Assembly: GCA_950054255.1 (NCBI GenBank)
Contig: CATLOR010000003.1
Location: forward strand, 121,816-185,815
DNA: 64,000 nucleotides
Source: an uncultured Rickettsiales bacterium
Lineage (GTDB): Bacteria; Pseudomonadota; Alphaproteobacteria; Micavibrionales; GCA-2720935
Reading direction: 5' to 3'
This document shows positions 8,633 to 56,523 of this stretch, piece after piece. How positions within the stretch are numbered: the first letter of the stretch is position 1; each line of letters starts with the position of its first letter. Below the pieces are notes generated by a model, which did no database searches, was not told where the DNA came from, and worked only from the letters and a program-made list of their open reading frames with translations. A program made the position numbers and the translations under genes.

Positions 8633-8649
8633 CACACAAGGAGAAATAC

Positions 8650-34098: not shown

Positions 34099-37000
34099 AT
34101 GGCAGGAGCTTTTCATTTGTCATTTGCGGCGTTAGCAGATGTCAATGGGTCCAACCCAATCAGTCTTGAAGTTGTAGTCAACGGTGTCGTCTTGGCAACC
34201 GTATCCCCTCTTGATGGTTCTAACAATTTCGAACTTCTTTTAGATTATTCAGGTCTTCAGCCCTCATCTGTTTCTTTCCGATTTGCCTCTGGATCAGGAA
34301 ATAGCGGTGATAGCGTTACATTTACCGATGTTGAGATCAATCGAAATGACCTAAATACGAGCACTGAACTAAGCTCTTCTTCTATCTCTGTTGGACAAAG
34401 CGCCCTTTTAACACTCACATCTTCTGATTTTTATTCTACGCCTCCCACATTAGGGGCTGCGACTATTTCAGGAACAGCAAGTGATGATGAAACCCTCAAT
34501 GGGGGTAAACTCGCCGATATTATTGATGGGATGGCTGGTGATGACCGCATTCGTGGACGCGCTGGCTCAGATGAAATCACTGGCGGTGATGGAAATGATT
34601 TAATTTTCGGAGAAGATGGCGATGACACCATTCTTGGTGGTGATGGGAATGATACGCTGTTTGGTAATAATAACGATGATATCCTCTATGGTGAAGACGG
34701 GAATGACAACCTCATTGGAGGTGATGGTGATGATATTCTGGTCGGTGGGAATGGCACAGATTTTATCCTAGGGAATGCTGGAAATGACATTCTATTTGGT
34801 GATGAAGGCAATGATATGCTCATTGGAGATACAGGCGACGATATTTTAATCGGTGGTATTGGTGATGATCTTCTTATTGGTGGTTCAGGTGATGATGCTA
34901 TTTCAGGTGGTGATGGCAATGATCAAGTATTGGGCGATGATGGCAATGACTTAATTGACACTGGTGCGGGCGATGACCAAATTCTTGGCGGCGCTGGAAA
35001 TGACACAATTGCTTCTGGTACTGGGGAAGATATCATCTTTGCTGGAAGCGGTAATGATGAAATCTATTCTGGCGATGATGACGATACCGTTTATGGCGAA
35101 GATGGCAATGATGTCATTTATGGCGAAGATGGCGTTGATATCATTCATGGTGGCGGCGGATCAGACACAATTTATGGCGGTGAAGGCAATGATATTATAC
35201 ATGGTCACGGATTAGACTATGACGGCATTTTCTCTCTTCTCGCGGCTAATCCTAATGTTTCTTATTCTCTCGAAACAGGCAGTTTTTATCAATATGTGAA
35301 TACAGGTGGCTTTATAACACATGACGCCGCACAGACTGCTGCTGAGAGTGCGACATTAAATGGTATGAATGGACATTTAACCGTAATCACGTCGCAGTCA
35401 GAACAAGACTTCCTTGACGGCATATGGGATAATGCAAATGCTTGGATTGCTGGATCAGATAGCGCAATCGAAGGCACATGGGCTTGGGACACAGGGATTG
35501 AAACAGGAATCTATTTCAGTAACAGCTCGGGCAGCTCTCTTTTCAATATGTATGAAAACTGGCAATCAGGTCAGCCTGATGGCGGTGCTTCAGAAAATCA
35601 AATTTATATGCTTAATAGTGGCGGTTCTGTTTGGGCTGATCGCGGAGCAAGTGCTTCAGGCGTAACAGGCTATTTCATTGAATGGGAAGCTGGGGCTATG
35701 TCTGATGATTTAGGGGCAGACGTGATCGATGGCGGTAATGGAAATGACATTATATATAGTTATGGCGGCAATGACACAATAACGGGCGGCGCTGGTGATG
35801 ACTTTATTAGTGCGGGTGATGGCAATAACGATATCGATGGTGGCTTTGGTGTAAGCGTTATCTCAGCTGGTGATGGTAATAACACGATCGTCACAAGTAC
35901 CCAAGCCGATTTTATTTATGTAGGGACAGGGACAAATACAATTGATGCTAATTCTGGTAACAATGTTATTTATTCTGGTGATGGCGCAGACACAATCGAT
36001 ACTGGCAATGGTGATGATTATATAAGTGCAGGTGGCGGTAATAACATCATTGATGCGAGCACTGGAAATAATACAATTTATACAGGTACTGGGAGCAGTA
36101 CAATTACTACAGGAAACGGTATTGATTATATTGAGGCTGGTGACGGGAATAATAATATCAATGCCGGAGATGGTGACAACACAATTTACTCGGGTAATGG
36201 AGATAGCACTATTACTACAGGCACTGGTATAGATTATATAGATGTTGGTGACGGTGACCACACAATTAATGCCGGCACGGGGAATAATACAATTTACGCA
36301 GGAACAGGTATCAACGACATTACGACCGGTGATGGTATTGATTATATCGAAGCTGCAGATGGAACAAATACAATTGATGCTGGAAATGGCAATAATGACA
36401 TCTATTCAGGCTCTGGCGATGATACAATTGATGCTGGCACAGGTGATGACTATATCGAGGCTGGTGATGGCGACAACACCATTAATGCGAGCAGCGGTCA
36501 AAATGAAATCTATAGCGGTTCAGGACATGATAACATCACAGCCGGTAATGGAAGTGACTATATCGAAGCTGGCGATGGGAATAACACAATTAATGCAGGC
36601 ACTGGCGAAAATGAAATTTACAGTGGCGAAGGTAATGACCTCATCACGACTGGTGACTCAAATGATTATATTGAAGCTGGAAACGGAAACAACACGATTA
36701 CCGCTGGGGCTGGAGAAAATGAGATTTACTCAGGTTCAGGCTTAGACATTATCACAACAGGAAACAGCAATGATATTATCGACGCTGGCGATGGCGACAA
36801 CGAGATTGAAGCTGGAGCTGGCACAAATATAATTACAACAGGCTCAGGCAATGATGACATTGATACGGGTGATGGCAATGACACCATCAATGCCGGTGAT
36901 GGAAATAATACAATCATCGCTGGAGCTGGCACGAACTTTATCTATTCGGGTGTTGGCAATGACAATATCTACACTGAAGACAATAATGACTATATCGAAG

Positions 37001-39111
37001 CTGGTGATGGTGACAATGATATTAGTGCTGGTGGTGGTACAAACGAGATTTATTCTGGTGCTGGTAATGACACGATTGATACAGGAAACAATAATGACAC
37101 GATTGATGCTGGGAACGGGAATAACACAATTAATGCTGGTGATGGACTAAATGATATTACATCAGGCTCAGGTAATGACATTATTAATACCGGGTCAGGT
37201 AATGATACGATTGAGGCTGGTGATGGTGATAATCAAATAAATGCCGGTGCGGGTCAAAACGAGATTTATTCCGGTTCTGGAAGTGACACAATCGATACAG
37301 GTGATGGGAATGATTACATTGAATCTGGCAATGGTGGTGACACTATTAATGCAGGCAATGGACAGAACCAAATCTATACAGGAAGCGGATCAGACACAAT
37401 TACAAGTGGCTTAGGAAACGATACGATTGAAACTGGTGATGGTGATGATTTTGTCGATGCTGGCTTTGGCAATGATACCGTTGCTGCGGGAGCAGGAAAT
37501 GACACAATCACCTATGAAAATGCAAGCTCTGCGGTAACTGTCGATTTAAATGTCACAACGATGCAAAACACAGGTGGGTATGGACAAGACACCATTAGTG
37601 GCTTCGAAAATATTATTGGCTCAATTTATAATGACATTTTAACTGGAACAGCCGTTGCTAATATTATCTATGGACTTGACGGTGACGATACAATTAATGC
37701 GGGCAATGGAAATAATACAATTTATGGTGGATCAGGGACAAATAATGTGATTTCTGGTACAGGAGATGACTTTATTAATACTGGAAATAATTCAGATACC
37801 ATTAATGCTGGTGATGGTGATAACACAATCGAAGCTGGCAATGGCACAAATAATATAACATCTGGCTCAGGCAATGATAACATCACTTCTGGAAGTGGTG
37901 GTGATACAATCGTCGCGGGGGATGGAAATAATACAATCGAAGCGGGCTCTGGCGCGAATAACATTACTTCTGGCTCTGGCAATGATGACATCACTTCTGG
38001 TAATGCAAATGATATTATCGACGCAGGTGATGGAAATAACACAATCGCTGCAGGTAACGGCACGAATAACATTACATCAGGTAGCGGTAATGACGACATT
38101 ACCACTGGAAACGGAAATGATACAATCACAGCCGGTGATGGAGATAACACAATCGTTGCTGGAAACGGAACAAATATCATCACAACAGGATCTGGCACAG
38201 ATATTATAACATCTGGTAGTGGCAATGATACAATTGTTACAGGAAATGGCGATGATACGATCACCAGTGGGGCTGGCAATGATACAATTACCGTTGGTAC
38301 ACAAACAGTACCTGTTGTAAACGCAACAACATTTACAGAAGATTTCGGTTTCTTCCAAGGTGGTAACGGAACCATTATTGAATTAGGAGATGATATCGGG
38401 ATCACGATTGATGGGAACTTATGGACGAGATCTCTTTTTGATTACACAATCACCGCGAATACTGTCATTGAGTTTGATTTTAGAAGCACCCTTCAATCTG
38501 AAATCTCCGCAATTGGGTTTGCCGATGATGATGGCAACAATTATGGGCAAATGTTTAATATATATGGTACTGAGGACAGAGCCTATGCCGATGAGTTTGC
38601 CTATGACGGCTCTGGGAATTGGACTCATTACGAAATCAATGTAGGTGCATATTACACAGGCACATATTCTAGATTATTTATCGTCAATGATGATGATGGC
38701 ATTTTTAGCACAGATGGTAACAGCTCATGGAAAAATATTATAATTCATGAAGGTGATTCAGGTGATAGCATTATCAATGCGGGTACTGGCCTAGATACAA
38801 TCTATGCTGATGGTGGTATGGATACTTTTATCTTCGACAATATAAATAATACAGATGTCATTCATAATTATAATGCCCAAGATGGCGATGTCCTTGATAT
38901 CTCTGATATTCTTATCGGATATACAGGATCTTCGGATATCAATGACTTTGTGAATTTCACAAATTCTGGCAATGAACATACAATTATGTCTGTTGATGTC
39001 GATGGAACAGTTGGCGGTGCTAACTTTGTTAATATCGCAGAACTACGTGGACAGGCAGACATGCTGGATGAAACAACCCTTCTTGCAAATGGCAATATTG
39101 TTGTCTTTTAA
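34099..39111 (+). CDS. Giant secreted RTX-like repeat protein with embedded C-type-lectin-like domain and T1SS C-terminal target domain
   Basis: 1670 aa. Classical GGxGxDxUx repeats occupy about 34500-35210. A CTLD-like segment at 35281-35690 contains WIAGSD..EGTWAWDTG..WQSGQPDG..VWAD. About 90 variant nonapeptides occupy about 35710-38295. The C-terminal GDVLDISDIL..VDVDG..LLANGNIVVF resembles the VC_A0849-class T1SS signal. Confidence 0.85.
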   Translation: MAGAFHLSFAALADVNGSNPISLEVVVNGVVLATVSPLDGSNNFELLLDYSGLQPSSVSFRFASGSGNSGDSVTFTDVEINRNDLNTSTELSSSSISVGQSALLTLTSSDFYSTPPTLGAATISGTASDDETLNGGKLADIIDGMAGDDRIRGRAGSDEITGGDGNDLIFGEDGDDTILGGDGNDTLFGNNNDDILYGEDGNDNLIGGDGDDILVGGNGTDFILGNAGNDILFGDEGNDMLIGDTGDDILIGGIGDDLLIGGSGDDAISGGDGNDQVLGDDGNDLIDTGAGDDQILGGAGNDTIASGTGEDIIFAGSGNDEIYSGDDDDTVYGEDGNDVIYGEDGVDIIHGGGGSDTIYGGEGNDIIHGHGLDYDGIFSLLAANPNVSYSLETGSFYQYVNTGGFITHDAAQTAAESATLNGMNGHLTVITSQSEQDFLDGIWDNANAWIAGSDSAIEGTWAWDTGIETGIYFSNSSGSSLFNMYENWQSGQPDGGASENQIYMLNSGGSVWADRGASASGVTGYFIEWEAGAMSDDLGADVIDGGNGNDIIYSYGGNDTITGGAGDDFISAGDGNNDIDGGFGVSVISAGDGNNTIVTSTQADFIYVGTGTNTIDANSGNNVIYSGDGADTIDTGNGDDYISAGGGNNIIDASTGNNTIYTGTGSSTITTGNGIDYIEAGDGNNNINAGDGDNTIYSGNGDSTITTGTGIDYIDVGDGDHTINAGTGNNTIYAGTGINDITTGDGIDYIEAADGTNTIDAGNGNNDIYSGSGDDTIDAGTGDDYIEAGDGDNTINASSGQNEIYSGSGHDNITAGNGSDYIEAGDGNNTINAGTGENEIYSGEGNDLITTGDSNDYIEAGNGNNTITAGAGENEIYSGSGLDIITTGNSNDIIDAGDGDNEIEAGAGTNIITTGSGNDDIDTGDGNDTINAGDGNNTIIAGAGTNFIYSGVGNDNIYTEDNNDYIEAGDGDNDISAGGGTNEIYSGAGNDTIDTGNNNDTIDAGNGNNTINAGDGLNDITSGSGNDIINTGSGNDTIEAGDGDNQINAGAGQNEIYSGSGSDTIDTGDGNDYIESGNGGDTINAGNGQNQIYTGSGSDTITSGLGNDTIETGDGDDFVDAGFGNDTVAAGAGNDTITYENASSAVTVDLNVTTMQNTGGYGQDTISGFENIIGSIYNDILTGTAVANIIYGLDGDDTINAGNGNNTIYGGSGTNNVISGTGDDFINTGNNSDTINAGDGDNTIEAGNGTNNITSGSGNDNITSGSGGDTIVAGDGNNTIEAGSGANNITSGSGNDDITSGNANDIIDAGDGNNTIAAGNGTNNITSGSGNDDITTGNGNDTITAGDGDNTIVAGNGTNIITTGSGTDIITSGSGNDTIVTGNGDDTITSGAGNDTITVGTQTVPVVNATTFTEDFGFFQGGNGTIIELGDDIGITIDGNLWTRSLFDYTITANTVIEFDFRSTLQSEISAIGFADDDGNNYGQMFNIYGTEDRAYADEFAYDGSGNWTHYEINVGAYYTGTYSRLFIVNDDDGIFSTDGNSSWKNIIIHEGDSGDSIINAGTGLDTIYADGGMDTFIFDNINNTDVIHNYNAQDGDVLDISDILIGYTGSSDINDFVNFTNSGNEHTIMSVDVDGTVGGANFVNIAELRGQADMLDETTLLANGNIVVF
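35710..38295 (+). repeat. Intragenic array of 27-nt (nonapeptide) repeats, consensus I-x-(A/S/T)-G-x-G-x-(N/D)-x
   Basis: Visible 9-aa periodicity in the translation (IDAGNGNNDIYSGSGDDTIDAGTGDDYIEAGDGDNT...). It is interrupted at about 37500-37690. Confidence 0.85.
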
Positions 39112-41843: not shown

Positions 41844-42431
41844 CTATTCGTCCGCAACAAACTCCATCTTTTCAGGATAAAGATCCTTGGATGGCAGCAT
41901 ATACATCCGCGTTTTAACACTGAAAAAATTTGGCCCCGAACAATATGTACCGCTAATCTCACGTGCGATGGTTGTCAGGGTTCTATATTTGCGCCTGCTG
42001 TACTCGTAATATCCTTGACGGCAATAAACCACATATACCTCTCCATGATATTCCCGCTCAAGAACGGTTCCAGGGATAAGTTTTGTAATCGCGCCTCTCG
42101 AGCTATTTTTTAATGCATCACTATTAAAGTCGATAGGATGGATGTGTCGCGGCAAATGCATATCAGGATTAATCGGCTTCTTCGATTCCTCATGATATTT
42201 TTCCATGATTTTCATCACGATTTGGTCAAAGGTAAAGTTGATGGAACAATCCTCACCGAATTCCATTTTATAATCATGGCGCACCTGTTTCATGCTGGAC
42301 AATCTCAGTCGCGCATATTGCTTGATCAGATACAAATCATCTTCATCTTGACCTTCCGAGCGTGGTTCTTGAAACCCTTGAAGCGTTTCCAGCCATTGGC
42401 TCAAATTAAATCTTAATCTGTCGTTACTCAT
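41844..42431 (-). CDS. DUF2924-like protein, paralogue 2
   Basis: The C-terminus GTVLEREYHGEVYVVYCRQGYYEYSRRKYRTLTTIAREISGTYCSGPNFFSVK matches the DUF2924 pattern (G-T-x-L-x-R-x-(Y/W)-x-G..Y-x-S-L-(S/T)-x-I-A-x-x-I-(S/T)-G-x-x-x-(N/S)-G-x-x-F-F). The preferred start MSNDRL forms an ATGAGTAA overlap with the upstream paralogue. The track ORF extends to 42617. Confidence 0.55.
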   Translation of the reverse strand: MSNDRLRFNLSQWLETLQGFQEPRSEGQDEDDLYLIKQYARLRLSSMKQVRHDYKMEFGEDCSINFTFDQIVMKIMEKYHEESKKPINPDMHLPRHIHPIDFNSDALKNSSRGAITKLIPGTVLEREYHGEVYVVYCRQGYYEYSRRKYRTLTTIAREISGTYCSGPNFFSVKTRMYMLPSKDLYPEKMEFVADE

Positions 42432-42972
42432 CAGCGCCTCCATACGTAATGGTGGTCTTTGATTTGAAAAACCGGACGCCAGAACAATTCGTTTGAGAAA
42501 TATGCCGCGCCACGGCAGTGATATTCTTGAACTTGATATTCCTGTAAGAAAACCCACCGTTGATACATTCAATGATGTGATCCTCGCCTTTGTATCTTTT
42601 CGTGATGATCGTGCCATCTGGGAACTTTGTGTTTGAGCCTTGGGATGCCTTTTCCAAAGGATTGTTTGGTTCGCCCTTGGTATAATGATCCATTAATCGG
42701 CTGATTATGGCTTCTCGGTAAATATTGTGCGGACAGGACTTCTTAAAGATGTGCTTATATTCTGCGCGCAGCAAATCCACATCGCACAGACGCAGCCGCG
42801 CATATTGCCGTACCAGATACAAATCCAAGCTCTGCGGCTGGCTATCAGCCAGTAAATGCGATAAAAATTGCCATGTTTGATCTTCTTTCATAAAACTACC
42901 TCCTGAAGGCATACACGCTTCAGAACCGTTCTTTATCAAGTTGTTTTCTCTGTATTTCTTCTCTTTCGACAT
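42424..42972 (-). CDS. DUF2924-like protein, paralogue 1
   Basis: GTIITKRYKGEDHIIECINGGFSYRNIKFKNITAVARHISQTNCSGVRFFKSK, plus a shared LYL(V/I)(R/K)QYARLRL motif. The preferred start MSKEKK has an AGGAA RBS. Confidence 0.55.
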   Translation of the reverse strand: MSKEKKYRENNLIKNGSEACMPSGGSFMKEDQTWQFLSHLLADSQPQSLDLYLVRQYARLRLCDVDLLRAEYKHIFKKSCPHNIYREAIISRLMDHYTKGEPNNPLEKASQGSNTKFPDGTIITKRYKGEDHIIECINGGFSYRNIKFKNITAVARHISQTNCSGVRFFKSKTTITYGGADE

Positions 42973-43344
42973 TTCATAATTTCCTTTCGGTTTTGCCTGT
43001 ATTGAATAGGTCTGCAAACCTCTCCAAAAACGACGACGTAAATTGCAACTTTCTTGTCGTTATTTTTCTGGTACGGGGTTTGCTCGCAAAAAACCGATGG
43101 AATGTGAAAAAATTTGATTTTGTTTAAAATGAACCAGATTTAGGTAGTATTAGTCCCCTTAGAGCGACCAAAATAAACAGAAAGCGCCCCCGAAGAGGAC
43201 GCTTTTTGTATCTGACATTTAATTGGTTTGGCTGTTGTTCTAGTCTTCTGCCTTATTAAATGTATCTATGTATCTGATTATGTGTGTAAGCGATACCCCG
43301 AAACGAACTCTTGAACTATTGCCCTTCGCGAACAGAAATATGAC

Positions 43345-43707
43345 CTAACGAATATCGAGATTTTCGTCAATTTCTGGATCAGGATCATCCCACGATCCAG
43401 TGCATTGTTCGTAATAATCAACATGCTTTTGGAAGCGCGGATCTTCACCTTGAATGAAATAAGTATAAAGACGATTTACTATTTTCTTCATTAGAGACTT
43501 CATCTCAGGGTTTGTAATTCTAAAGGCTTCGTTCCAAGGAATCTCGTTCCCTTCGGCGTCAATGATTTTAACATCTGAATAATCACCAACTTTTGTCACA
43601 GGTGTTGTGCCAGCATGAATATTTTCAAGTTCAGTATGACGTACACACATCGCTGTTAGCGTTTTAGCAAATCTACCTGCCATTTTTTGTTCTGTTTTTG
43701 AATTCAT
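43345..43707 (-). CDS. Hypothetical 120-aa protein, last gene of the minus-strand trio
   Basis: ORF with a 3-nt gap to the upstream AlbA_2 gene. I recognised no family. Confidence 0.35.
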   Translation of the reverse strand: MNSKTEQKMAGRFAKTLTAMCVRHTELENIHAGTTPVTKVGDYSDVKIIDAEGNEIPWNEAFRITNPEMKSLMKKIVNRLYTYFIQGEDPRFQKHVDYYEQCTGSWDDPDPEIDENLDIR

Positions 43708-43710
43708 AGC

Positions 43711-44328
43711 TTACTCATCGTCTGTTTTAAAATTATTGTACTCTTTTGTTGTGAGAGATCTTGTGGCGTTTCCATCCCTAATATAAAAATCGCCCCTCTG
43801 GTTTGTGAATACATGCTTTGCTGATTTCTCAATCTCAATTCTTAGGACTTCTTTATCATCCACCCGCTCAAACTTTATGCGGTACAGTCGATCAACTGCG
43901 CCATCTATATTGCTTCGGATTGCGCTCCTTAGGGCTAACTCAAACTTATCTTTGTTACGCTCACGTTTAATTAGGGTCTCTATTCCAACTACAGTGGAGT
44001 TATCGGCAACTCCCAATATAATTTCACCGCCGTCAGAGTTTGCAAAAGCGACAATGGTCTTAACCAGACCATCGTAAGGGGATTTTCTTTTGCTGTCCTC
44101 ACTAAGCGTTTCTTTAAATTCTAATCGGCCATGCTCCTTCTCGTTTAGAAGTTCTTGAATGTCACGCCATGGCTTTTCTCCTTTTGGGAATTGTTTGTCA
44201 CCGATTAAATAGCCAGCTCCAGCTGCTAGTAATGCCGGTACCCATCCACCTAAAGGCAGTGCTACCAATGCCAGCCCTGCCGATATGCTGCCGACTTTAA
44301 TTTTTCTATCCATATTACGTTGCTCCAT
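43711..44328 (-). CDS. Membrane-anchored AlbA_2 (Schlafen-like, divergent-AAA) domain protein
   Basis: N-terminal hydrophobic segments (GSISAGLALVALPLGGWVPALLAAGAGYLIG), then LEFKETLS..IVAFANSDGGEIILGV, which is typical of AlbA_2. Confidence 0.6.
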   Translation of the reverse strand: MEQRNMDRKIKVGSISAGLALVALPLGGWVPALLAAGAGYLIGDKQFPKGEKPWRDIQELLNEKEHGRLEFKETLSEDSKRKSPYDGLVKTIVAFANSDGGEIILGVADNSTVVGIETLIKRERNKDKFELALRSAIRSNIDGAVDRLYRIKFERVDDKEVLRIEIEKSAKHVFTNQRGDFYIRDGNATRSLTTKEYNNFKTDDE

Positions 44329-45802
44329 ATTTTCTTAGTACATCCAATAGTAAAACCATCGCATAAGTATCCTGCTTACAATATTCGATAAGGTTGTCCC
44401 ATAAGGCTGGTTGTTCAGTTTCTGGCAAGATTCCATTTATGAACGCATTGTATTGCAGCATAGCATCACCACCGTGAGATATTTCTAGATCATCATAGCT
44501 GAGATCAGTAAAAGCAGGTAATACGGCTTTAATCGATGCTGAGCTTTTTTGGTTTGGATTATAGAGCCAGCGTTTTCTAAATGGCTCGAGCAAATCAATT
44601 ACCCTAGAATTAATGGCGTTTAAGGCAGGTGCATATTCAGGAAAATCACTGGCCAGATCATTGTTGCGGGCAATCTCAAAAGACTGGTTATAAACTATGA
44701 CGTGACCGTCCACGCCACATAGCTCGATAAGTTTCTCAGCAAAAAGTCGGCGCGGGTCGGTCTGCTCTTTATGCAAATATTCATGATGCACCAATTCTGC
44801 GTCTGGACTTTCTTGTATATGAACGGAGAATTGAAACGGTATCTGTTGATATGGCCTCGTTCCATCAAAAAGAGGAATGGCTGGATTAATCGTCTCATAA
44901 TCCAAAAAATACAGCGGATATTGTAGATGGTCTAGAAAGCCTTTTACGTTGGCGCGATCAATGATGGTCTCCCCGCTTAAATAGCTTTCGACATCCAAAC
45001 TCTTTACACCGCCCGGGCGAATATGATCAGGTAGTTTTTCAATAGCTACACCGTGCTGACGCGACAGATCTTCGGCTTTCTTCTTTTGAAAGACATCATA
45101 CACAGAATAATCCGGTACATGCTTCCAGCAATGATCACGGTAATCACACTCAAACGGTGCGAAACACCGCGCACCGATTGATACGTCTGGCTCTTTTTTG
45201 CGCTCGAGAACATAGCCAAGCTGTCCAGCGACAGCCTCAACTTCAGCTTGCCTAGAAAAGACGTCACCAGATATATCTTCAAGTTTAAACAAAAGCTTTG
45301 GATCAATATCCCCAGCGCGGATATAGCTATTATCCAACACCATCATAAAGCACTTGCGGATTTTGTACCCAGCGCCGTTAAAGACATGATATTGAAACGC
45401 CATGTCATCGAGGTGATAATCTTTGACACTGGTAGAGCTTTTAACCTCGATCAAATCCCATTCATTACTCCCGCTGACGCGCTTTAAAATGTCAATGCGG
45501 GAATAGCCACCATCAATCGGGTGCATTGCTGTAGCTTCAAAAATAATATCATGACCGTCTTTGATAAATTGCTGTGTAGATTCAATCGCGCCTTTCACAT
45601 CCCAATAGGCATTTTTGACCTCAGCCCCACCGTCAAAATAGGACATAGCCAGCGCACCAATCTCATTCCCCGCATCAAACCGCGCTTGCGTCTGCGCATC
45701 AATCTCTGGGGCAAGGTCTTTACGATGGCGATACAACCACAAAGCCTTCGGGCATTGAAGACCCTTTACGTACTGAGATTTTGAGATTGTATGCTTATCC
45801 AT
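44315..45802 (-). CDS. DUF2779-like protein: Cas4/RecB-type nuclease with Cys cluster plus DnaQ-like exonuclease region
   Basis: N-terminal ISKSQYVKGLQCPKALWLY, a Cys triad CFAPFECDYRDHCW, then YFLDYETINPAIP (DxE) and CKQDTYAMV (late Asp). Confidence 0.55.
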   Translation of the reverse strand: MDKHTISKSQYVKGLQCPKALWLYRHRKDLAPEIDAQTQARFDAGNEIGALAMSYFDGGAEVKNAYWDVKGAIESTQQFIKDGHDIIFEATAMHPIDGGYSRIDILKRVSGSNEWDLIEVKSSTSVKDYHLDDMAFQYHVFNGAGYKIRKCFMMVLDNSYIRAGDIDPKLLFKLEDISGDVFSRQAEVEAVAGQLGYVLERKKEPDVSIGARCFAPFECDYRDHCWKHVPDYSVYDVFQKKKAEDLSRQHGVAIEKLPDHIRPGGVKSLDVESYLSGETIIDRANVKGFLDHLQYPLYFLDYETINPAIPLFDGTRPYQQIPFQFSVHIQESPDAELVHHEYLHKEQTDPRRLFAEKLIELCGVDGHVIVYNQSFEIARNNDLASDFPEYAPALNAINSRVIDLLEPFRKRWLYNPNQKSSASIKAVLPAFTDLSYDDLEISHGGDAMLQYNAFINGILPETEQPALWDNLIEYCKQDTYAMVLLLDVLRKYGAT

Positions 45803-45883
45803 GAATAGAAAGTTACTTGATTATTCTTAAATTTTCCACTATTTTCTCATTACTACCCATTTACACCAAAGATCAGGAAAGTC

Positions 45884-46075
45884 ATGGATAACGACATAAT
45901 GACAATGAAAGAGGTCGCTGAGTACCTCAAATTAAATGAAAAGACAGCCTATCGTTTAACCTCAGACGGTAAGCTTCCAGCATTTAAAGTTGGCGGTAGC
46001 TGGCGTTTTCGTAAATCAGAGATTGACGAATGGACAAAAAAGCAAAGCAATATGCAGAACCAGCAGGATAAATAG
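45884..46075 (+). CDS. Excisionase/MerR-type helix-turn-helix DNA-binding protein
   Basis: 63 aa. MTMKEVAEYLKLNEKTAYRLTSDGKLPAFKVGGSWRFRKSEIDEW fits the HTH_17 pattern. Confidence 0.7.
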   Translation: MDNDIMTMKEVAEYLKLNEKTAYRLTSDGKLPAFKVGGSWRFRKSEIDEWTKKQSNMQNQQDK

Positions 46076-46078
46076 ACC

Positions 46079-48745
46079 ATGAGAATAGCGCAGATCGAAA
46101 AAAATCTTTCAGAACTGGTGAAAAGCATTTCACCAGATGAATTTGTTTACGATCTCTTGCTGGCTTACGGCACGCCAAAAACGACTGTCACGTTGCTTAA
46201 AAAGGGTAATCGAAACCTTTCCAAAAAAGACGGACAAATCATCCTTAAGCGCAAATTATTCTTTCAAGAAACACAAGAGCAAGATCTGCACGGTCTGATT
46301 GACAGCTTAAAAAATGATGATGCCACCCACCGCCATGACCCACGCTTTATTGTGGTAACGGATTATAAAACCTTACTAGCCATTGATACAAAAACGGATG
46401 ACACGCTCGATATAAAAGTTAACGAGATTAACAAACACCCGTTCTTTTTCGGGCCGTGGGCAAAAATTGAGAAAAACACCCATTACAACGAGCAAGAAGC
46501 CGATGTTAAAGCCGCCGAGAAGATGGCGAAGATCTATGATGAGATTTTAAAAGATAACGCATTTGAAACAAAAGAAGATCTACATGGCCTTAATATTTTC
46601 CTCTCGCGCCTGTTATTCTGTTTCTTTGCTGAAGATACAGGTATTTTTAGAGGCGAGAATGTTTTCACAAACTATGTCAGCACTTCTCAAGAAGACGGTA
46701 GCGATCTTGATGATTACTTGAACAAACTGTTCGAGGTCTTAAACACTGCCGATCATTCCGCTTATCCCGATTACCTCTCAAAATTCCCGTACGTAAATGG
46801 CGGATTATTTGGTGATCGATATTTCGCACCAAAATTCTCGCGTAAAGCACGCCGCATGATTATCGAATGTGGTGAGCTGGACTGGGCAACCATCAACCCT
46901 GATATTTTCGGGTCAATGTTCCAAGCTGTGGTTCATACAGACCAGCGCAGTAGCATGGGGCAGCATTACACCTCCGTACCGAATATCATGAAAGTGATTG
47001 AGCCACTTTTCCTAAACGAGCTGCGTGAAGAGTTTGATAAATATTACGAGAATCAGAAAAAACTGGAACAGCTTCTTGCTCGCCTTGAAAAACTCCGCAT
47101 CTTTGACCCGGCTTGTGGATCGGGTAATTTTCTAATTATTGCCTATAAGGAAATCCGCGAACTGGAGATGGAGATATTCCAGCGCATTCAGGAGGTAACA
47201 ACCAACCCATCACTGCCGTTCTCCCGTATTCAGCTTTCACAATTTTACGGGATTGAGCTGGATGATTTCGCGCATGAAGTTGCCATTCTTTCCTTGTGGC
47301 TAACCGAACACCAAATGAATGTGAAATTTGAGGAAGTCTTTGGTCAGACAAACCCAACGTTGCCATTGAAAGAAGGTGGAAACATCGTTTGTGACAACGC
47401 TACCCGCATTTCATGGGAAGACGTATGTCCAAAAGATAAAAATGCTGAAATTTATATCTTAGGCAATCCGCCTTACCAAGGAGCAAGAAGGCAAGATGAG
47501 CAGCAAAAGGCTGATTTGTCGCATGTGTTTTCAGAGTTTAAAACATACAAAAACCTTGATTATATATCCTGCTGGTTTTGGCTTGGTGCGGAGTACATTC
47601 AAGGAAATAACAGTAAAATCGGCTTAGTAAGTACCAACTCAATATGTCAGGGGGAACAGGTTTCTTTGTTGTGGCCTTTTATATTTAATAAAGAGGTTGA
47701 AATTGGGTTTTGTCACCAATCTTTTAAGTGGACAAATAACGCAAGAAACAACGCAGGAGTAACTTGCGTGATCGTTGGTTTGCAAAGCCAAAAAGAGAAA
47801 CTGAAGGAAATATATTCCGATGGTATTTGCAAAAAAGTTAAATCAATCAATGCTTACCTCACAGAAGGAAACCAGACTATTGTTGGAAGACGCAACAAGC
47901 CATTGTCTAGCAACCTAAATCATATGCCAAAAGGTAATATGCCGTACGATGGTGGGCATTTAATTTTAGATGAAACAGAAAAAAATGATCTAATATCCAA
48001 CTATCCTACTGCTAAAAAGTTTATAAAAAAGTTGGTTGGGGCAAAAGAATTTATACATTCATTAAAACGTTACTGTCTTTGGATTGAAGATAATTCTTTA
48101 AATGAAGCACTTGCAATAAGCCCCATAAAAGAACGTATTGAGAAAGTTAAAAAAATGCGTTTGGATAGTTCTGATACTGCTGCAAACAGATTGGCAGAAA
48201 GAGCGCATCAATTTAGAGAGATAAATCAGACAAAAACAAGCTCTATTGTAGTTCCATCTGCAACATCGGAGCGTAGAAAATATATCCCGATGGGCTTTGT
48301 GAATGATGATACTATCGTTAGTAATCTTGCCTTTGTTATTTATGATGCTGAACCGTATTTGTTTGGTATTCTTTCATCAAAAATTCACCTTGCGTGGGTT
48401 AAAAGCGTTTCAGGGCAGCTAGAAACTCGAATCAGATATTCGTCTGCCCTATGTTACAACACATTCCCTGTGCCAGATCTCACAGAAAAGCAAAAAGAAA
48501 CGATTACCACGCATGTTTACAATGTGCTGGAAGAGCGTGAAAAACATTCCGAAAAAACAATGGCGGAGCTGTATGACCCCGACAAAATGCCGGACGGGTT
48601 AAGAGAGGCACACCACCACCTCGACCTCGCCGTTGAGCGTTGCTATCGCTCAAAACCATTCACCAGCGATGAAGAACGCCTTGAATACCTTTTCAAACTC
48701 TACGAAGACATGACCGCCAAAGAAAAATCAGGAGGTCTGCTTTGA
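46079..48745 (+). CDS. MmeI-family (type IIL/IIG-like, YeeA-like) N6-adenine DNA methyltransferase
   Basis: 888 aa. SAM motif DPACGSGNF (47105-47131) and catalytic NPPY (47465-47476). LDYISCWFW..VSTNSICQGEQVSLLW is typical of MmeI/YeeA-like enzymes. N-terminal D95-x7-D103-T-K105 may be a PD-(D/E)XK motif. Confidence 0.8.
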   Translation: MRIAQIEKNLSELVKSISPDEFVYDLLLAYGTPKTTVTLLKKGNRNLSKKDGQIILKRKLFFQETQEQDLHGLIDSLKNDDATHRHDPRFIVVTDYKTLLAIDTKTDDTLDIKVNEINKHPFFFGPWAKIEKNTHYNEQEADVKAAEKMAKIYDEILKDNAFETKEDLHGLNIFLSRLLFCFFAEDTGIFRGENVFTNYVSTSQEDGSDLDDYLNKLFEVLNTADHSAYPDYLSKFPYVNGGLFGDRYFAPKFSRKARRMIIECGELDWATINPDIFGSMFQAVVHTDQRSSMGQHYTSVPNIMKVIEPLFLNELREEFDKYYENQKKLEQLLARLEKLRIFDPACGSGNFLIIAYKEIRELEMEIFQRIQEVTTNPSLPFSRIQLSQFYGIELDDFAHEVAILSLWLTEHQMNVKFEEVFGQTNPTLPLKEGGNIVCDNATRISWEDVCPKDKNAEIYILGNPPYQGARRQDEQQKADLSHVFSEFKTYKNLDYISCWFWLGAEYIQGNNSKIGLVSTNSICQGEQVSLLWPFIFNKEVEIGFCHQSFKWTNNARNNAGVTCVIVGLQSQKEKLKEIYSDGICKKVKSINAYLTEGNQTIVGRRNKPLSSNLNHMPKGNMPYDGGHLILDETEKNDLISNYPTAKKFIKKLVGAKEFIHSLKRYCLWIEDNSLNEALAISPIKERIEKVKKMRLDSSDTAANRLAERAHQFREINQTKTSSIVVPSATSERRKYIPMGFVNDDTIVSNLAFVIYDAEPYLFGILSSKIHLAWVKSVSGQLETRIRYSSALCYNTFPVPDLTEKQKETITTHVYNVLEEREKHSEKTMAELYDPDKMPDGLREAHHHLDLAVERCYRSKPFTSDEERLEYLFKLYEDMTAKEKSGGLL

Positions 48746-49773
48746 GTGACCTGCTTGATTTAACCGTTGATACAAAGTCTTTGCGAGTTAGTAATCGCGA
48801 AGGTGATCGAAGAGAGTTCAAAGCTCTATTCGACAACAATGCTCTCTGGAAGTACGCAAAAACTATGGTTTCATTCGCAAACAGGGATGGCGGGGTGATA
48901 TTTTTTGGCGTAAAGGATCGCCCCAGAGAATTGGTAGGATTAACGGGCAATAACCCCGATGAGCTTGTTTTTGCTCATTTTTTAAAAGAATATTTTGAAC
49001 CAGAGATACGCTTCACTCTCGATACGCTTAAAATAGCGGGAAAAGACCTTCTTTATGTTCTAATCGAGGCTTCTCCAAATAAACCAGTCATTTGTAAAAA
49101 ACGAAAAGTATCCAAAAATAAAGAATCTGGGAAAACGGATAAGGAGCTACTTCGCGAAGGCGCTATTTATTATCGTTATTCATCTTCAACAGAAGAAATT
49201 AAATATCCGGAGCTTACAAAAATTTTAGAGGAGAAAGTGCAGAAAGTCTTTCATTCTATGGTCGATAACATAACCCTTCTCAATAAAGTTGGCTATGATC
49301 GTGCCGCTGTTGTAGATGCCAGCGAGTTGAGTGGAAACGATAAAAGCACATCCGTCTATATAACAACAGAAACAGCAAAAAATATTAATTGGATTCAAAA
49401 AGGGCGTTTTTCTGAAACAGAAGACCAGTCAGAAAAAGCATATTATGTGACTCGTGAAATTGAAGTTAGGCATGGCGTTGAAATTTCCAACCCAGTGCCC
49501 ACAGACCCAGGTTTAACGCATACCCTTACACAGACAGCATTAAGACAAGCTATTTCTTTATCAGGAAATCATCTTGATGCAGTTTTATGGAAGTTGGGGC
49601 TGTTAAATAACCCGAAATATCATTTGTCTGGCCAGCATGGAAAAAACAAATGGCATAAATTCACTGAAGCTACAAAAGACAAAGTTTTAGAAGCCTACCC
49701 TTTAGACCTTACTGGTAGACTTAATAAGGTCAAAGATGTGGTGAATGAATATCTACAAAGCCAAAGGAAATAA
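48742..49773 (+). CDS. AlbA_2 (Schlafen-like) domain protein
   Basis: TTG start preceded by AGGAGG, with a 4-nt overlap with the MTase stop. REFKALFDNNALWKYAKTMVSFANRDGGVIFFGVKD is the AlbA_2 pattern. Confidence 0.6.
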   Translation: MSDLLDLTVDTKSLRVSNREGDRREFKALFDNNALWKYAKTMVSFANRDGGVIFFGVKDRPRELVGLTGNNPDELVFAHFLKEYFEPEIRFTLDTLKIAGKDLLYVLIEASPNKPVICKKRKVSKNKESGKTDKELLREGAIYYRYSSSTEEIKYPELTKILEEKVQKVFHSMVDNITLLNKVGYDRAAVVDASELSGNDKSTSVYITTETAKNINWIQKGRFSETEDQSEKAYYVTREIEVRHGVEISNPVPTDPGLTHTLTQTALRQAISLSGNHLDAVLWKLGLLNNPKYHLSGQHGKNKWHKFTEATKDKVLEAYPLDLTGRLNKVKDVVNEYLQSQRK

Positions 49774-49784
49774 AGGAATAAATA

Positions 49785-51704
49785 ATGCCAAATATAGTAG
49801 ACGTCACATATGCCCAAACAGGGGAAAGCACCAAAACCAACTCAATGGGTATGCGTGAAATGCAAGAGCGTGCTTACTCTGCACGTGACGCTCAATATCT
49901 TCTTCTGAAAGCACCTCCTGCTTCAGGTAAATCTCGTGCGTTGATGTTTATTGCCTTGGATAAGCTGATTAACCAAGGCTTGAAAAAAGTGATTGTGGCC
50001 GTCCCTGAAAAATCTATCGGTGGTTCATTTGGAAATACTGATCTTAAAGAATACGGCTTCTATGCAAACTGGGAACCTAATGAGAAATACAACCTCTGCA
50101 CTCCGGGAGGCGATAAAAGCAAAGTGGATGCCTTTATGCGCTTTATGGAAGGTGACGAAAAAATTCTAATTTGTACGCATGCAACATTACGCTTTGCCTT
50201 TGAGCAGATCGATGAGAGCAAGTTTGATAATTGCCTACTTGCGATTGATGAATTTCACCATGTATCCGCAGATAAAGAAAACAGTCGCTTGGGTGGATTG
50301 CTACATTCGATAATGACTAAATCCAGCGCTCACGTGGTAGCGATGACAGGTTCATATTTCCGTGGCGATGGCGTTCCAGTACTTACACCAGAAGACGAAA
50401 AGAAATTTATACCAGTTACCTATAATTACTATGAGCAGTTGAATGGCTATACGCACCTGAAATCCTTGGGGATTGGATATCACTTTTATCAAGGTCGCTA
50501 CACTACAGCAATTGCCGAGGTTCTAGATACTGATAAAAAAACAATTCTACATATTCCCAGCGTGAATTCAGGTGAGTCAACAAAAGAGAAATATGACGAA
50601 GTTGACACAGTATTAGGCATTCTTGGCGAGGTTGATTATCAGGATGCTGAAACAGGTATTATATACCTAAAACGTCATACAGATGGGAAAACACTAAAAA
50701 TTGCAAACTTGGTAGAGGAATATCAAAGAGATCGCGTGCAGGAATACCTGCGTAATATTAAATCAGCTGATGATATTGATTTAATTATCGCTCTTGGCAT
50801 GGCAAAGGAAGGCTTTGACTGGCCGTATTGTGAGCATGCCTTAACGGTCGGTTACAGAGGGTCTTTGACTGAGGTTATTCAAATTATAGGGCGTTGTACG
50901 CGTGATAGCGATAACAAAACCCACGCGCAATTTACTAATCTGATTGCGCAACCCGATGCGGAAGATGGCTTAGTTACATTATCCGTTAATAATATGCTCA
51001 AGGCCATTACATGCTCACTTCTGATGGAGCAAGTGTTAGCACCTAATTTCAAATTCAAAACAAAGCTCTCAGATGACGATGAAGCAAAACCCGGAGAATT
51101 CAAAATTCGTGGTTTCAAAGAGCCTTCATCGAAAAGAGTAAAAGAGATTGTTGAATCTGATTTAAATGATCTAAAGGCAAGAATTCTTCAGGATGATAAA
51201 ATGATTAAGGCGCTGCCGGGTAATGTTGATCCAGAAGTGATTAACAAGGTGATGATTCCGAAGATTATCAAGATCAAATATCCAGAGCTATCAGATGCAG
51301 AAGTGGAAGAAGTACGCCAACATGTGGTCGTTGATTCCGTCATCAAGAATGGAGAAATCAAGGAAACTGGTGATAAACGCTTTATTCGGATGGCAGGTAA
51401 ATTTGTCAATATTGATGACCTGCACGTCGATCTGATTGATAGCGTTAATCCGTTCCAAGCCGCCTTTGAAATCCTATCTAAATCTGTAACAGCACAGGTC
51501 TTCCGAGTAATTCAGGAGGCAATTGAAGCCACCCGTATTCAAATGACGGATGAAGAAGCCATGCTGCTATGGCCAAAGATTAAGAGCTTTGTTCAAAACA
51601 ATAATGGTCAGCAACCAAATATCAATGCCGTTGACCCATTGGAACAACGATTAGCTGAGGCTCTGATATATATTCAAAACCAGCGCAGACAACAAAATTT
51701 ATAA
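49785..51704 (+). CDS. SF2 DExH-box helicase (YeeB-like / type III res-like)
   Basis: Motif I APPASGKSRA, motif II DEFHH, motif III MTGS, and motif VI QIIGRCTRD. Confidence 0.8.
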   Translation: MPNIVDVTYAQTGESTKTNSMGMREMQERAYSARDAQYLLLKAPPASGKSRALMFIALDKLINQGLKKVIVAVPEKSIGGSFGNTDLKEYGFYANWEPNEKYNLCTPGGDKSKVDAFMRFMEGDEKILICTHATLRFAFEQIDESKFDNCLLAIDEFHHVSADKENSRLGGLLHSIMTKSSAHVVAMTGSYFRGDGVPVLTPEDEKKFIPVTYNYYEQLNGYTHLKSLGIGYHFYQGRYTTAIAEVLDTDKKTILHIPSVNSGESTKEKYDEVDTVLGILGEVDYQDAETGIIYLKRHTDGKTLKIANLVEEYQRDRVQEYLRNIKSADDIDLIIALGMAKEGFDWPYCEHALTVGYRGSLTEVIQIIGRCTRDSDNKTHAQFTNLIAQPDAEDGLVTLSVNNMLKAITCSLLMEQVLAPNFKFKTKLSDDDEAKPGEFKIRGFKEPSSKRVKEIVESDLNDLKARILQDDKMIKALPGNVDPEVINKVMIPKIIKIKYPELSDAEVEEVRQHVVVDSVIKNGEIKETGDKRFIRMAGKFVNIDDLHVDLIDSVNPFQAAFEILSKSVTAQVFRVIQEAIEATRIQMTDEEAMLLWPKIKSFVQNNNGQQPNINAVDPLEQRLAEALIYIQNQRRQQNL

Positions 51705-51715
51705 GGTGTGATTGA

Positions 51716-52870
51716 GTGGATAAGGACGATTTATTAAAACTGATAAACGATGATGATTTAGGGCTATTAAATGTTAAGCCTAAGCAATCTGCTATTGTCA
51801 CTGCAGATGAGCGCCTTATTGCATCCTTTACTCAAATCAATCAGTTTGTTGCAGACAATGGACGAGAACCTGAAAGTGGTAAAGGCATTCAGGAACACCA
51901 ACTCTATGCTCGTCTTAACGGTATTCGTGAGAGTGCTGAGAAGATGGAAGCGCTTGCAAGCCTTGATGGACATGGCTTACTCAATGTCCAACGCACAGAA
52001 ATAAGCTCTATTGAAGATATTTTTGACGATGATGATTTGGGTATTTTGGGTAACGAAGCGGAGAGCATCTTTACGCTGAAGCACATCTCAAAAGAAACAA
52101 CGATGCCTGATTATGTTGCCAGTCGTAAGCCGTGTAAAGATTTTGAAATATTCGAGGCTAAATTCACTCAATGCCAGGCAGACCTGACAGCTGGAAAAAG
52201 AAAGCTATGGCCGTTTAAGAACGAACAACAAATCCAAAAGGGTTATTTCTTTGTTCTTAAAGGTGTTCTACTTTATGTGGCTGATGTTGGTGAAGTTGAG
52301 AAAAGTAACGGTAAAAAGAATGCTAGGTTACGCTGTATTTTTGAGAATGGAACAGAATCCGACATGTTGTTACGTTCATTGGCAGCCGAGCTTTATAAGG
52401 ATGGCCGTCGCGTAACTGAGCACGAAGATCAGTTGCTGGATGGCTTTAGCAATATTAACGAAGAAGACGAAGCAACAGGTTATATCTACGTCTTGCGCTC
52501 GTTAAGCACAAAGACTGATATTCAGGAACTTAACAACCTCTATAAAATTGGTTTCTCAACTGTTCCTGTAGAACAACGCATTAAGAATGCGGAAAACGAA
52601 CCAACATATTTAATGGCACCGGTTCATATTGTGGAGGCTTACCAGTGCTACAATATGAACCCACAAAAATTGGAACAGTTGCTTCACACATTCTTTGGGT
52701 CATCCTGTTTGAATATTGATATTTTCGATGGTAATGGCCAACGCCACACACCTCGTGAATGGTTCATTGCACCATTAGATATAATTGAACAAACGATACA
52801 TTTCGTGCTGAACGGCGACATTGTGAATTATCGTTATGATTCAGATAAACAAGAAATTGTGGGGAGGTAA
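51716..52870 (+). CDS. T5orf172 / GIY-YIG-superfamily (Mug113-like) protein, YeeC-like
   Basis: GTG start. The C-terminal half reads GYIYVLRS..LYKIGFSTVPVEQRIKN..EQLLHTFF..REWFIAPLDIIEQTI, which is the T5orf172 pattern. Confidence 0.65.
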   Translation: MDKDDLLKLINDDDLGLLNVKPKQSAIVTADERLIASFTQINQFVADNGREPESGKGIQEHQLYARLNGIRESAEKMEALASLDGHGLLNVQRTEISSIEDIFDDDDLGILGNEAESIFTLKHISKETTMPDYVASRKPCKDFEIFEAKFTQCQADLTAGKRKLWPFKNEQQIQKGYFFVLKGVLLYVADVGEVEKSNGKKNARLRCIFENGTESDMLLRSLAAELYKDGRRVTEHEDQLLDGFSNINEEDEATGYIYVLRSLSTKTDIQELNNLYKIGFSTVPVEQRIKNAENEPTYLMAPVHIVEAYQCYNMNPQKLEQLLHTFFGSSCLNIDIFDGNGQRHTPREWFIAPLDIIEQTIHFVLNGDIVNYRYDSDKQEIVGR

Positions 52871-52873
52871 AGA

Positions 52874-54256
52874 ATGCTTGATCAATCCTTCTCTGCTGAA
52901 AATTTCCGTAAAATTTTTGACTACGAAAACAGGAAAGGTAATTATCTTGCCGGGAGTTTCTTTCCAGACGCGAATGAAAAATCAAGAAAAATCAAACGAT
53001 GTAATGATGAGTTAAAGGAGCTCAAGAAACCCTCTGATGAAGATAAAGTTGATGCATATACTCAAAAGAAACAGGAGTTGGTTGAAAAGAAGACAAATTT
53101 AGAGCAGGAAAAAGAACAAATACTCGAAGATGCTTTTAAGAAGGTTAGCGATACAGCAACTCAAAAAAACTTTTCTTTAGATCTCGAAGATAGAGATATC
53201 AACGGCAAGAAAGTTTATGTTGCAGCGAATTCATCTGGAGACTATTCGGGGCTCGCTAAAGAGAAACGACTAAATTTAGCAGCCCAATTTTTTGCATTAA
53301 AACAGACACAGAAAAATATCAGTAAATTATATAAAGTTAAGCAAGCGGATCGTTATAATATAGTTTGCCAATTGAGAGAGGCTCTAAGAGGTCGTTTTCC
53401 TAAATATATTATTAGAACCGATATTTCGAGCTTTTATGAGAGCATTCCAAGGGTTGAATTAATAAAAAAAATCAATGAGGACAATCTTCTAACTTATAAT
53501 TCTAAGAAAACAATAAAACAGATCCTATATAAATATGGAACACTCCCTGGGGGGAGTTTCAAGGGCATCCCAAGAGGTGTTGGAATAAGCGCGTACCTCT
53601 CAGAATTACACATGCGCGAATTGGATGAAGAGATGCGAAACGCACCAAATGTTTTATATTACGCAAGGTATGTCGACGACATAATAATCATATACACTAA
53701 CGCCAACCCTAGCGTGAAATCATTGCGAGCATTCTGTAGAAACATTATTGAAAAGGGGCTGAAAAGAAACCGTCAAAAAACCTCTCTTATAAAGGCGAAT
53801 GGAAGTACACCGCACACCATTGATTATCTAGGCTATAGTTTTAGATTCGGCACCGGTGACGTTAAAGTAAACATAACAAAATCCAAAGTTGATCGGTATA
53901 AAAGTAAGATTGATCTATCTTTTTATGATTATGAAAAAAAATTAAAATATAATGAGAAAAAAGCTCGACGACTGCTAATAAAGCGAATTAAGTTTCTAAC
54001 TGGAAATACACGCTTAATTGGCAATAAGAAAAATATTCGAGTGGGGATATACTTTTCTAATAAGATTCTCACCGATCATTCTTATTTAAAGGGGATGGAC
54101 TGTTATCTAACTCACAAAGTATCTTCATTGCAAAATGAGCGAGCAAAAAACAGACTTAGTAAGCTGTCCTTTCAAAAAGGGTTCGTCGAGAAAACCTTTT
54201 ATAAATTTTCAAAGGCAGATTTAGAAAACATTATGGAGGCTTGGAAATATGCCTAA
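52874..54256 (+). CDS. Reverse transcriptase 1 (UG3/Drt3a-like, tentative class)
   Basis: 460 aa. RT motifs DISSFYESI, GIPRGVGISAYLSELHM, YARYVDDIIIIY (YVDD at 53669-53680), RNRQKTS and IDYLGYSF. There is an N-terminal charged coiled-coil and a GGGAGG RBS. Confidence 0.8.
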   Translation: MLDQSFSAENFRKIFDYENRKGNYLAGSFFPDANEKSRKIKRCNDELKELKKPSDEDKVDAYTQKKQELVEKKTNLEQEKEQILEDAFKKVSDTATQKNFSLDLEDRDINGKKVYVAANSSGDYSGLAKEKRLNLAAQFFALKQTQKNISKLYKVKQADRYNIVCQLREALRGRFPKYIIRTDISSFYESIPRVELIKKINEDNLLTYNSKKTIKQILYKYGTLPGGSFKGIPRGVGISAYLSELHMRELDEEMRNAPNVLYYARYVDDIIIIYTNANPSVKSLRAFCRNIIEKGLKRNRQKTSLIKANGSTPHTIDYLGYSFRFGTGDVKVNITKSKVDRYKSKIDLSFYDYEKKLKYNEKKARRLLIKRIKFLTGNTRLIGNKKNIRVGIYFSNKILTDHSYLKGMDCYLTHKVSSLQNERAKNRLSKLSFQKGFVEKTFYKFSKADLENIMEAWKYA

Positions 54257-56375: not shown

Positions 56376-56470
56376 ATATGCGCTTCACTCAAATTATTAA
56401 CACACACATGCGCACGTTAGTCTTTCTGAAAAAGTTAGTATAACATTGGCACCACTGGAGAGTGGTGCCT
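56376..56470 (+). ncRNA. Candidate RT-associated structured non-coding RNA (hypothesis)
   Basis: The non-coding tail directly after RT2 has a TGCGC (56379-56383)/GCGCA (56410-56414) stem. This stem encloses a loop with ACACACACA (56400-56408). A perfect 9-bp hairpin follows at 56448-56469. There are no expression data. Confidence 0.3.
56448..56469. terminator. GC-rich hairpin GGCACCACT-GGAG-AGTGGTGCC between the convergent RT2 and lysozyme genes
   Basis: Perfect 9-bp inverted repeat read in the sequence. No adjacent U-run on the plus strand, so it may be structural rather than an intrinsic terminator. Confidence 0.45.
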
Positions 56471-56523
56471 AAATGTTTCCGATCTTCTTCTCTATTTTTT
56501 AAGGCATAATCTAAAAATACTAC

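Follow-up and report, generated by a model that had tools for sequence, protein, structure and literature searches.

Three neighbouring minus-strand genes at positions 43345 to 45802 of a 64,000-nucleotide (nt) stretch of DNA from an uncultured Rickettsiales bacterium (GenBank assembly GCA_950054255.1, contig CATLOR010000003.1; the whole stretch is called the window below) raise the question of whether they act together as one defence system or only happen to lie side by side. They encode a DUF2779 protein with two predicted nuclease domains, a small protein that joins a putative membrane anchor to a Schlafen-type (AlbA_2) domain, and a 120-aa protein that we call p120. Because each of the three open reading frames (ORFs) has homologue clusters (more than 5400 for DUF2779, about 25 for the Schlafen protein and, at 90% identity, about 128 for p120), all are taken to be real genes. 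An initial annotation had treated them as a single module and a candidate defence system; conserved co-occurrence of the three in other genomes was looked for and was not found, and the Schlafen gene turned out to be swapped as a cassette. The reading that we consider probable is that a prophage defence hotspot, in a marine alphaproteobacterium-like host, lies between a phage lysozyme gene and p120 and carries independent cassettes, the three genes being functionally separate units.

Cargo exchange between the lysozyme gene and p120

In a viral contig, L115 (loci compared with the window are given by their L numbers), p120 starts 44 nt past the lysozyme stop codon, and the tail genes and lysozyme gene are collinear with those of the window at 69-75% nucleotide identity. 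As this junction is empty, the window must carry an insertion of 12.8 kb in the corresponding interval, flanked on both sides by phage backbone genes (Table 1). In other relatives the site is filled differently. By blastn, the window is 88% identical to L010, a Nitrosomonadaceae metagenome-assembled genome, at 43283-43737 (p120) and at 44349-46051 (DUF2779 and the small divergent gene HTH_17), and this identity does not extend across the Schlafen gene, whose place L010 fills with a lipoprotein-like ORF of 137 aa. In L001, L002 and L025 a GmrSD-like gene of 569 aa is found there, with a full-length match to the PADLOC candidate HEC-05. Conversely, L102 shares with the window by blastn only the Schlafen gene (43690-44309, 87%), the lysozyme gene (90% at the nucleotide level) and p120 (74%). 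An OLD/AriA-like ATPase lies directly upstream of p120 in L009 and BrxL in L072, and L020 has no gene between HTH_17 and p120. Since nucleotide breakpoints flank the Schlafen gene, we conclude that it is swapped as a cassette between DUF2779 and p120. Repeats around the cassette borders gave no convincing recombination sites, and no tRNA gene that could serve as an attachment site was found in the window.

The locus therefore has what defines a prophage defence hotspot, namely an empty site in a related phage and differing cargo that includes recognised defence genes. A fixed site with swapped cargo and an empty counterpart is the signature described for the hotspots of P2 prophages and P4 satellites (Rousset et al., Cell Host Microbe 2022, PMC9122126) and not that of a fixed multi-gene system. 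The likeness extends to the position between conserved phage genes, the variety of defence systems carried, the existence of empty sites and the exchange of cargo as cassettes. Unlike those hotspots, the present one belongs to another phage family, is flanked by lysozyme and p120, occurs in marine or aquatic Alphaproteobacteria-like hosts and splits its cargo between two operons that diverge around a small HTH_17 gene, which has a conserved promoter-like element.

Counts of co-occurrence agree with this picture. DUF2779 was found near p120 in two of 80 genome loci and in none of 55 viral loci, and the membrane-anchored Schlafen gene near p120 in none of either set. Among eight distinct DUF2779 contexts and six distinct Schlafen contexts, each set including the window, the two genes occur together in the window only. 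The initial annotation had suggested examining how often DUF2779 and AlbA_2 genes co-occur in defence islands; both do lie in defence islands elsewhere, but not together in the contexts sampled. It had also been aware of no described defence system with this three-gene composition, and none was found.

The third gene, p120, belongs to a large family (1326 clusters at 50% identity) that is present in 346 reference-genome loci, mostly of Alphaproteobacteria, and in 55 viral contigs of IMG/VR, in which it often lies near an end. On the same strand, the genes that precede it typically encode tail, fibre, holin-like or lysozyme proteins. The possibility that p120 is the partner of whichever gene lies upstream of it was considered and rejected, as tail-fibre or lysis genes precede it in most loci. 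It has no match in Pfam, NCBIfam, PHROGs or PADLOC, its profile retrieved only noise from the PDB, and its AlphaFold2 (AF2) model (mean predicted local distance difference test, pLDDT, 75) has no fold match in the PDB or BFVD. On its genomic distribution, p120 is best described as a phage backbone gene whose only link with the insertion is that it lies at its border. Among ten longer members of the family a single fusion was seen, in P0394 (370 aa), which carries an N-terminal Xre-type helix-turn-helix domain and which alone hints at p120 as a possible regulator-associated domain.

Two single-gene leads

The first of the two other genes encodes a protein for which the initial annotation had proposed a Cas4/AddB-like cysteine cluster and a DnaQ-like DxE...D exonuclease signature, and domain matches and conservation bear it out. 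The protein matches PF11074 (DUF2779) with an E-value of 5e-45 (153 bits against a cut-off of 23.3) and PF13482 (RNase_H_2) with 4e-6; the PADLOC Cas4 models match residues 10-227 (2e-6), and the Pfam Cas_Cas4 model reaches only 0.015, under its threshold. Across 31 homologues the N-terminal half keeps C17, C213, C219 and C225 together with D104, E119 and K121 (E119-x-K121) invariant, and the C-terminal half D301-x-E303, D403, Y474 and D478, so that both nuclease centres look intact. The profile had no match among PDB sequences. This combination of a Cas4-like nuclease and a DEDD exonuclease has been published before (PMC3985635, PMC13621843), and the protein shares it, with the same D/E/K and DEDD residues, with MMSYN1_0389 (PMC13621843) and with the RNase H-like family F.17 (PMC3985635); solo Cas4 is another close counterpart. 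Unlike the Mycoplasma protein, which has two cysteines and is encoded by a quasi-essential chromosomal gene, the clade of the window keeps all four predicted Fe-S cysteines and resides in defence islands and in the prophage hotspot. It also differs from Cas4, since the loci examined lack the cas1/cas2 genes beside a CRISPR array that mark CRISPR-associated Cas4: no cas genes were seen among ten scanned island proteins or in the eight DUF2779 contexts, the window itself not having been searched for CRISPR arrays as such. In L010, the DUF2779 gene (8006-9491) is split into overlapping ORFs of 217 and 316 aa and is either a frameshifted pseudogene or the product of an assembly error.

Seven of the eight DUF2779 contexts are defence or mobile-element islands with differing neighbours, and in all eight the gene stands within a few genes of restriction-modification (RM) or DNA-methyltransferase genes. 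Outside the closest lineage, where homologues are 56-66% identical, it is found between Dnd genes and a type I RM system; in an island with type III RM, HipA, SocA and GmrSD; in an integrase/AlpA island adjoining type I RM and containing a TIR gene; next to HsdM and a DUF4011 helicase; and directly ahead of a Dcm-HATPase-Z1-DUF4420-AIPR operon on a serine-recombinase element. No partner gene recurs, by which DUF2779 appears to be a solo cargo gene. Because it stands alone in defence islands and always close to RM or methyltransferase genes, we propose with moderate confidence a defence or defence-assisting role in the degradation of DNA ends. The protein would be a stand-alone enzyme, joining a Cas4-like Fe-S PD-(D/E)XK nuclease to a DEDDy-type 3'-5' exonuclease, that moves as a single gene among defence islands and could attack invading DNA from its free ends, such as those of linear phage DNA or restriction fragments.

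The second lead is the Schlafen gene. PF04326 (SLFN_AlbA_2) matches residues 66-192 with an E-value of 2.4e-23, and the catalytic motif defined for bacterial Schlafens, Ex4(E/D)xK (PMC13056530), is present as E65-HGRL-E70-F-K72, its E65, E70 and K72 being invariant in 21 homologues. The family profile matched the C-lobe of SLFN12, SLFN5, SLFN14 and SLFN13 among PDB sequences. The AF2 model has a pLDDT above 80 for residues 50-205, and its top Foldseek matches, at a probability of 1.00, were DIP2311, SLFN11/13/5/14 and the SAMD9 tRNase domain. With a PF04326 domain longer than 100 aa, the Ex4(E/D)xK motif and the C-lobe fold of Schlafen nucleases, it has the features that define prokaryotic Schlafens (pSlfn), and it is a predicted Schlafen nuclease with an intact catalytic motif. 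The initial annotation had described a membrane anchor fused to an AlbA_2 nucleic-acid-binding domain; hydropathy and PF04326 uphold both parts, although "nucleic-acid-binding" undersells what looks like a nuclease.

The anchor is a hydrophobic N-terminal segment of 31 residues with a Kyte-Doolittle maximum, over 19 residues, of 1.84 at residues 17-37. Basic residues flank it on both sides and P25-x-G27-G28, in mid-segment, is invariant in the homologues; for these reasons our guess is a re-entrant hairpin that would keep the Schlafen domain cytoplasmic. Short-peptide-pattern scans, which are weak evidence of absence, did not find the family in IMG/VR, and a scan of JGI metagenomes with its profile returned distant relatives only. 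Its contexts are varied. Apart from the window, the gene lies beside type I RM and an AAA_21 ATPase (L003-L008); in the same phage hotspot ahead of a 783-aa gene and a VRR_NUC gene and without DUF2779 (L102/L103); beside a SIR2_2 protein and an integrase (L104/L105); alone between ahpC-like and lplA-like housekeeping genes (L106); and, as a 41%-identical relative, divergent from HTH_17 and type I RM (L089). These contexts mark the gene as an independent cassette, about 0.6 kb long.

Bacterial Schlafens have been shown experimentally to defend as single genes (PMC13056530, PMC13552941), one of them via phage-triggered cleavage of tRNA. The protein of the window resembles these pSlfn anti-phage tRNases (Perez Taboada et al., Nat Microbiol 2026, PMC13056530; PMC13552941) in its PF04326 domain, its Ex4ExK motif, its C-lobe fold and its occurrence as a single gene in defence islands and hotspots. 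It differs from them in its very small size (about 200 aa) and in having a hydrophobic hairpin in place of the soluble sensor domains of pSlfn proteins, which are histidine kinase-like, HTH (helix-turn-helix), Ig-like or DUF262. The main text of PMC13056530 does not mention membrane-anchored forms, and its 558 unannotated clusters may include the present family. By analogy with the tested proteins, we envisage a single-gene abortive-infection effector, an RNase tethered by its N-terminal hairpin to the membrane's inner face, that would cut tRNA when triggered, with the membrane segment as sensor or regulator. Such a minimal bacterial Schlafen could reveal the gating of an RNase that lacks a soluble sensor domain.

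A more far-reaching version can be formulated for both proteins at once, in which the DUF2779 clade would be an undescribed stand-alone anti-phage or anti-plasmid nuclease that destroys DNA ends made by neighbouring RM systems, akin to a portable RecBCD on mobile elements, and the 200-aa Schlafen would be a new class of membrane-gated tRNase effector. That both parts hold seems to us somewhat unlikely. Overall, the locus is a moderately interesting new example of a known phenomenon with two single-gene leads, the membrane-anchored Schlafen and DUF2779, the latter a widespread two-nuclease protein that stands here as a single gene in defence islands adjoining restriction systems.

Gene layout and alternative readings

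The features of the locus are collected in Table 1. The initial annotation had emphasised the tight linkage of the three genes and a shared control region, and the 3-nt gap between the Schlafen gene and p120 and the 81-bp divergent region were borne out. The 14-nt overlap that it gave for DUF2779 and Schlafen depends on the start codon chosen for the latter. Most homologues use the start equivalent to M6, and the corresponding ATG at 44313 is preceded 9 nt upstream by GGAG; the Schlafen ORF thus probably begins at this sixth codon, 1 nt past the DUF2779 stop codon. DUF2779, Schlafen and p120 are probably co-transcribed from the divergent region to the terminator past p120. The promoter-like element in the divergent region points toward HTH_17. 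Its TTG block and a CTATT-TC block are invariant upstream of HTH_17 in an alignment of eight loci with differing leftward genes. A generic promoter scan, which found fewer sites than in shuffled controls, did not call the element, and for this reason it is proposed solely on the strength of its conservation. As aligned, it belongs to HTH_17-led cassettes and is not a control region specific to the three genes.

Table 1. Features of the locus in window coordinates
Feature	Position	Strand	Remarks
RTX protein	34099-39111	+	1670 aa, in the host-like flank
Two tandem DUF2924 genes	41844-43017	-	past the terminator
Intrinsic terminator	43181-43205	-	11-bp stem with 6 G-C pairs, then T-run; ends the DUF2779/Schlafen/p120 unit
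p120, conserved phage gene	43345-43707	-	120 aa; GDYSD and WD..P motifs; last gene of late/lysis arm; left hotspot border
Hotspot insertion	43708-56523		12.8 kb, between phage lysozyme and p120; site empty in L115
Schlafen nuclease (predicted)	43711-44328	-	205 aa, probably 200 aa from 44313; hydrophobic hairpin (putative) about 12-42, Schlafen/AlbA_2 domain about 57-205
DUF2779 protein	44315-45802	-	495 aa; Cas4-like PD-(D/E)XK N-terminal half, DEDDy-type 3'-5' exonuclease C-terminal half (predicted)
Divergent intergenic region	45803-45883		between the DUF2779 gene and HTH_17 (from 45884); promoter-like element toward HTH_17: TTGATT 45817-45822, 17-nt spacer, TATTTT 45840-45845
Second Schlafen/AlbA_2 protein	48742-49773	+	343 aa, within the MmeI operon
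Helicase and T5orf172 pair	49785-52870	+	639 and 384 aa
DRT3a/DRT3b pair	52874-56375	+	ends rightward operon
Lysozyme	56524-56958	-	phage gene at the right hotspot border

Several points weigh against the separation of the three genes that we favour. Gaps of 1-3 nt and a single terminator are also what a true operon-encoded system would be expected to show. The DUF2779 family includes a quasi-essential Mycoplasma gene and hence is not specific to defence (PMC13621843). The contexts sampled number only eight for DUF2779 and six for Schlafen. In the closest lineage exactly one gene always lies between DUF2779 and p120, which leaves room for a loose pairing of DUF2779 with a variable partner. Finally, the N-terminal segment of the Schlafen protein was modelled at a pLDDT below 50, so that for the hairpin topology we go by hydropathy, charge distribution and the P-x-G-G motif, which makes it a guess. 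Three alternatives were considered.

First, DUF2779 could serve DNA repair or recombination, or counter-defence, on mobile elements, for example by processing the DNA ends of the element itself, with Schlafen as the only defensive gene, which we regard as unlikely. Cas4-like nucleases serve recombination in phages, and this counts for such a role. PADLOC has no DUF2779 model, a literature search found no paper that names DUF2779 as a defence system, and the quasi-essential member belongs to a minimal Mycoplasma (PMC13621843). Against it, the clade was not found in IMG/VR viral contigs by short-peptide-pattern scans (again weak evidence of absence), RM, Dnd, TIR, GmrSD and AIPR genes surround it in the five contexts outside the closest lineage, and its slot holds recognised defence genes in relatives.

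Second, DUF2779 could be the constant nuclease of two-gene systems whose downstream partner (Schlafen, GmrSD-like or lipoprotein) is exchangeable, as in effector-swapping systems. The roughly 85-93% identity of DUF2779 between the window, L001/L002/L025 and L010, followed directly in each by one variable gene, would fit such an arrangement. However, the partners look autonomous, the GmrSD-like HEC-05 being a known single-gene candidate and bacterial Schlafens defending alone (PMC13056530); the downstream neighbour of DUF2779 is unrelated or on the opposite strand in the five other contexts; and the Schlafen gene stands without DUF2779 in five contexts. Taken together, this makes the pairing less likely still.

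Last, a new three-gene system, in which the dual nuclease would be the effector, the membrane AlbA_2 protein a sensor or anchor and the 120-aa protein an accessory factor, is very improbable: its tight spacing, single terminator, divergent promoter region and location within a defence hotspot speak for it, but co-occurrence was not found outside this genome, the middle gene is exchanged in collinear relatives, and related phages with an empty site still carry p120. A false lead is thereby removed, as the three genes are not a unit to clone.

Further cargo and flanks of the hotspot

Independent cassettes in a hotspot, the reading that we prefer, place the three genes within a larger island. That this is a defence island inside a prophage, as first annotated, is confirmed by the adjoining MmeI-type IIG RM and DRT3 genes and by tail genes and lysozyme at 56.5-64 kb. 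The leftward arm of the insertion consists of DUF2779 and the Schlafen gene. The rightward arm, on the plus strand, comprises HTH_17, the MmeI-type enzyme, a second Schlafen, a helicase, T5orf172, DRT3a and DRT3b; beyond it, on the minus strand, follow the lysozyme, gpJ-like, NlpC/P60, DUF1833 and RCC1-repeat tail genes. Leftward of p120 lie two DUF2924 genes and then a host-like histidine kinase, a response regulator and an RTX protein.

DNA identity between the MmeI-type gene and its counterpart in L001 is 88%, apart from a stretch of about 500 bp (47781-48277) without detectable homology. This stretch lies where the methyltransferase domain meets the target-recognition domain, which points to an exchange of specificity. 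The second Schlafen, with the catalytic motif E20-GDRR-E25-F-K27, is replaced in L001/L002 by a 158-aa gene and an Mrr_cat gene, which marks another exchangeable slot. The helicase and T5orf172 proteins are 100% and 97% identical to those of L001 (2651-5736), and the pair recurs adjoining p120 in Roseovarius autotrophicus (L081, 12147-15345) at 47% and 39% identity; PADLOC gave partial PbeA and PDC-S57 matches only, and the two may form a conserved two-gene candidate system. The reverse-transcriptase pair DRT3a/DRT3b is complete (PADLOC E-values of 5e-116 and 2e-203), and its position is taken in L002 by an 1836-aa DUF4011 helicase.

By way of the lysozyme/p120 junction, prophages of marine Alphaproteobacteria could be mined for defence cargo, which already includes several large proteins without a family match. 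Proteins of 588-707 aa without Pfam or PADLOC match lie directly upstream of p120 in L011 (7868-9991), L113 (7938-9992) and L114 (32-1798) and are candidate cargo of the hotspot. In L102 (1264-7681), a related prophage, the HTH_17-led arm contains a 304-aa gene, HSP70, TerB, an M48 peptidase and a 462-aa gene, and the other arm a 783-aa gene and a 583-aa VRR_NUC gene; both arms possibly carry uncharacterised defence cargo.

The DUF2924 pair follows p120 in L001 and L009 as well. DUF2924 usually accompanies large serine recombinases, as it does in L171; no recombinase or tRNA gene is visible at the DUF2924 end of the prophage. In the host-like flank, the RTX protein is matched 36 times by the HemolysinCabind repeat and has a segment that is C-type lectin-like.

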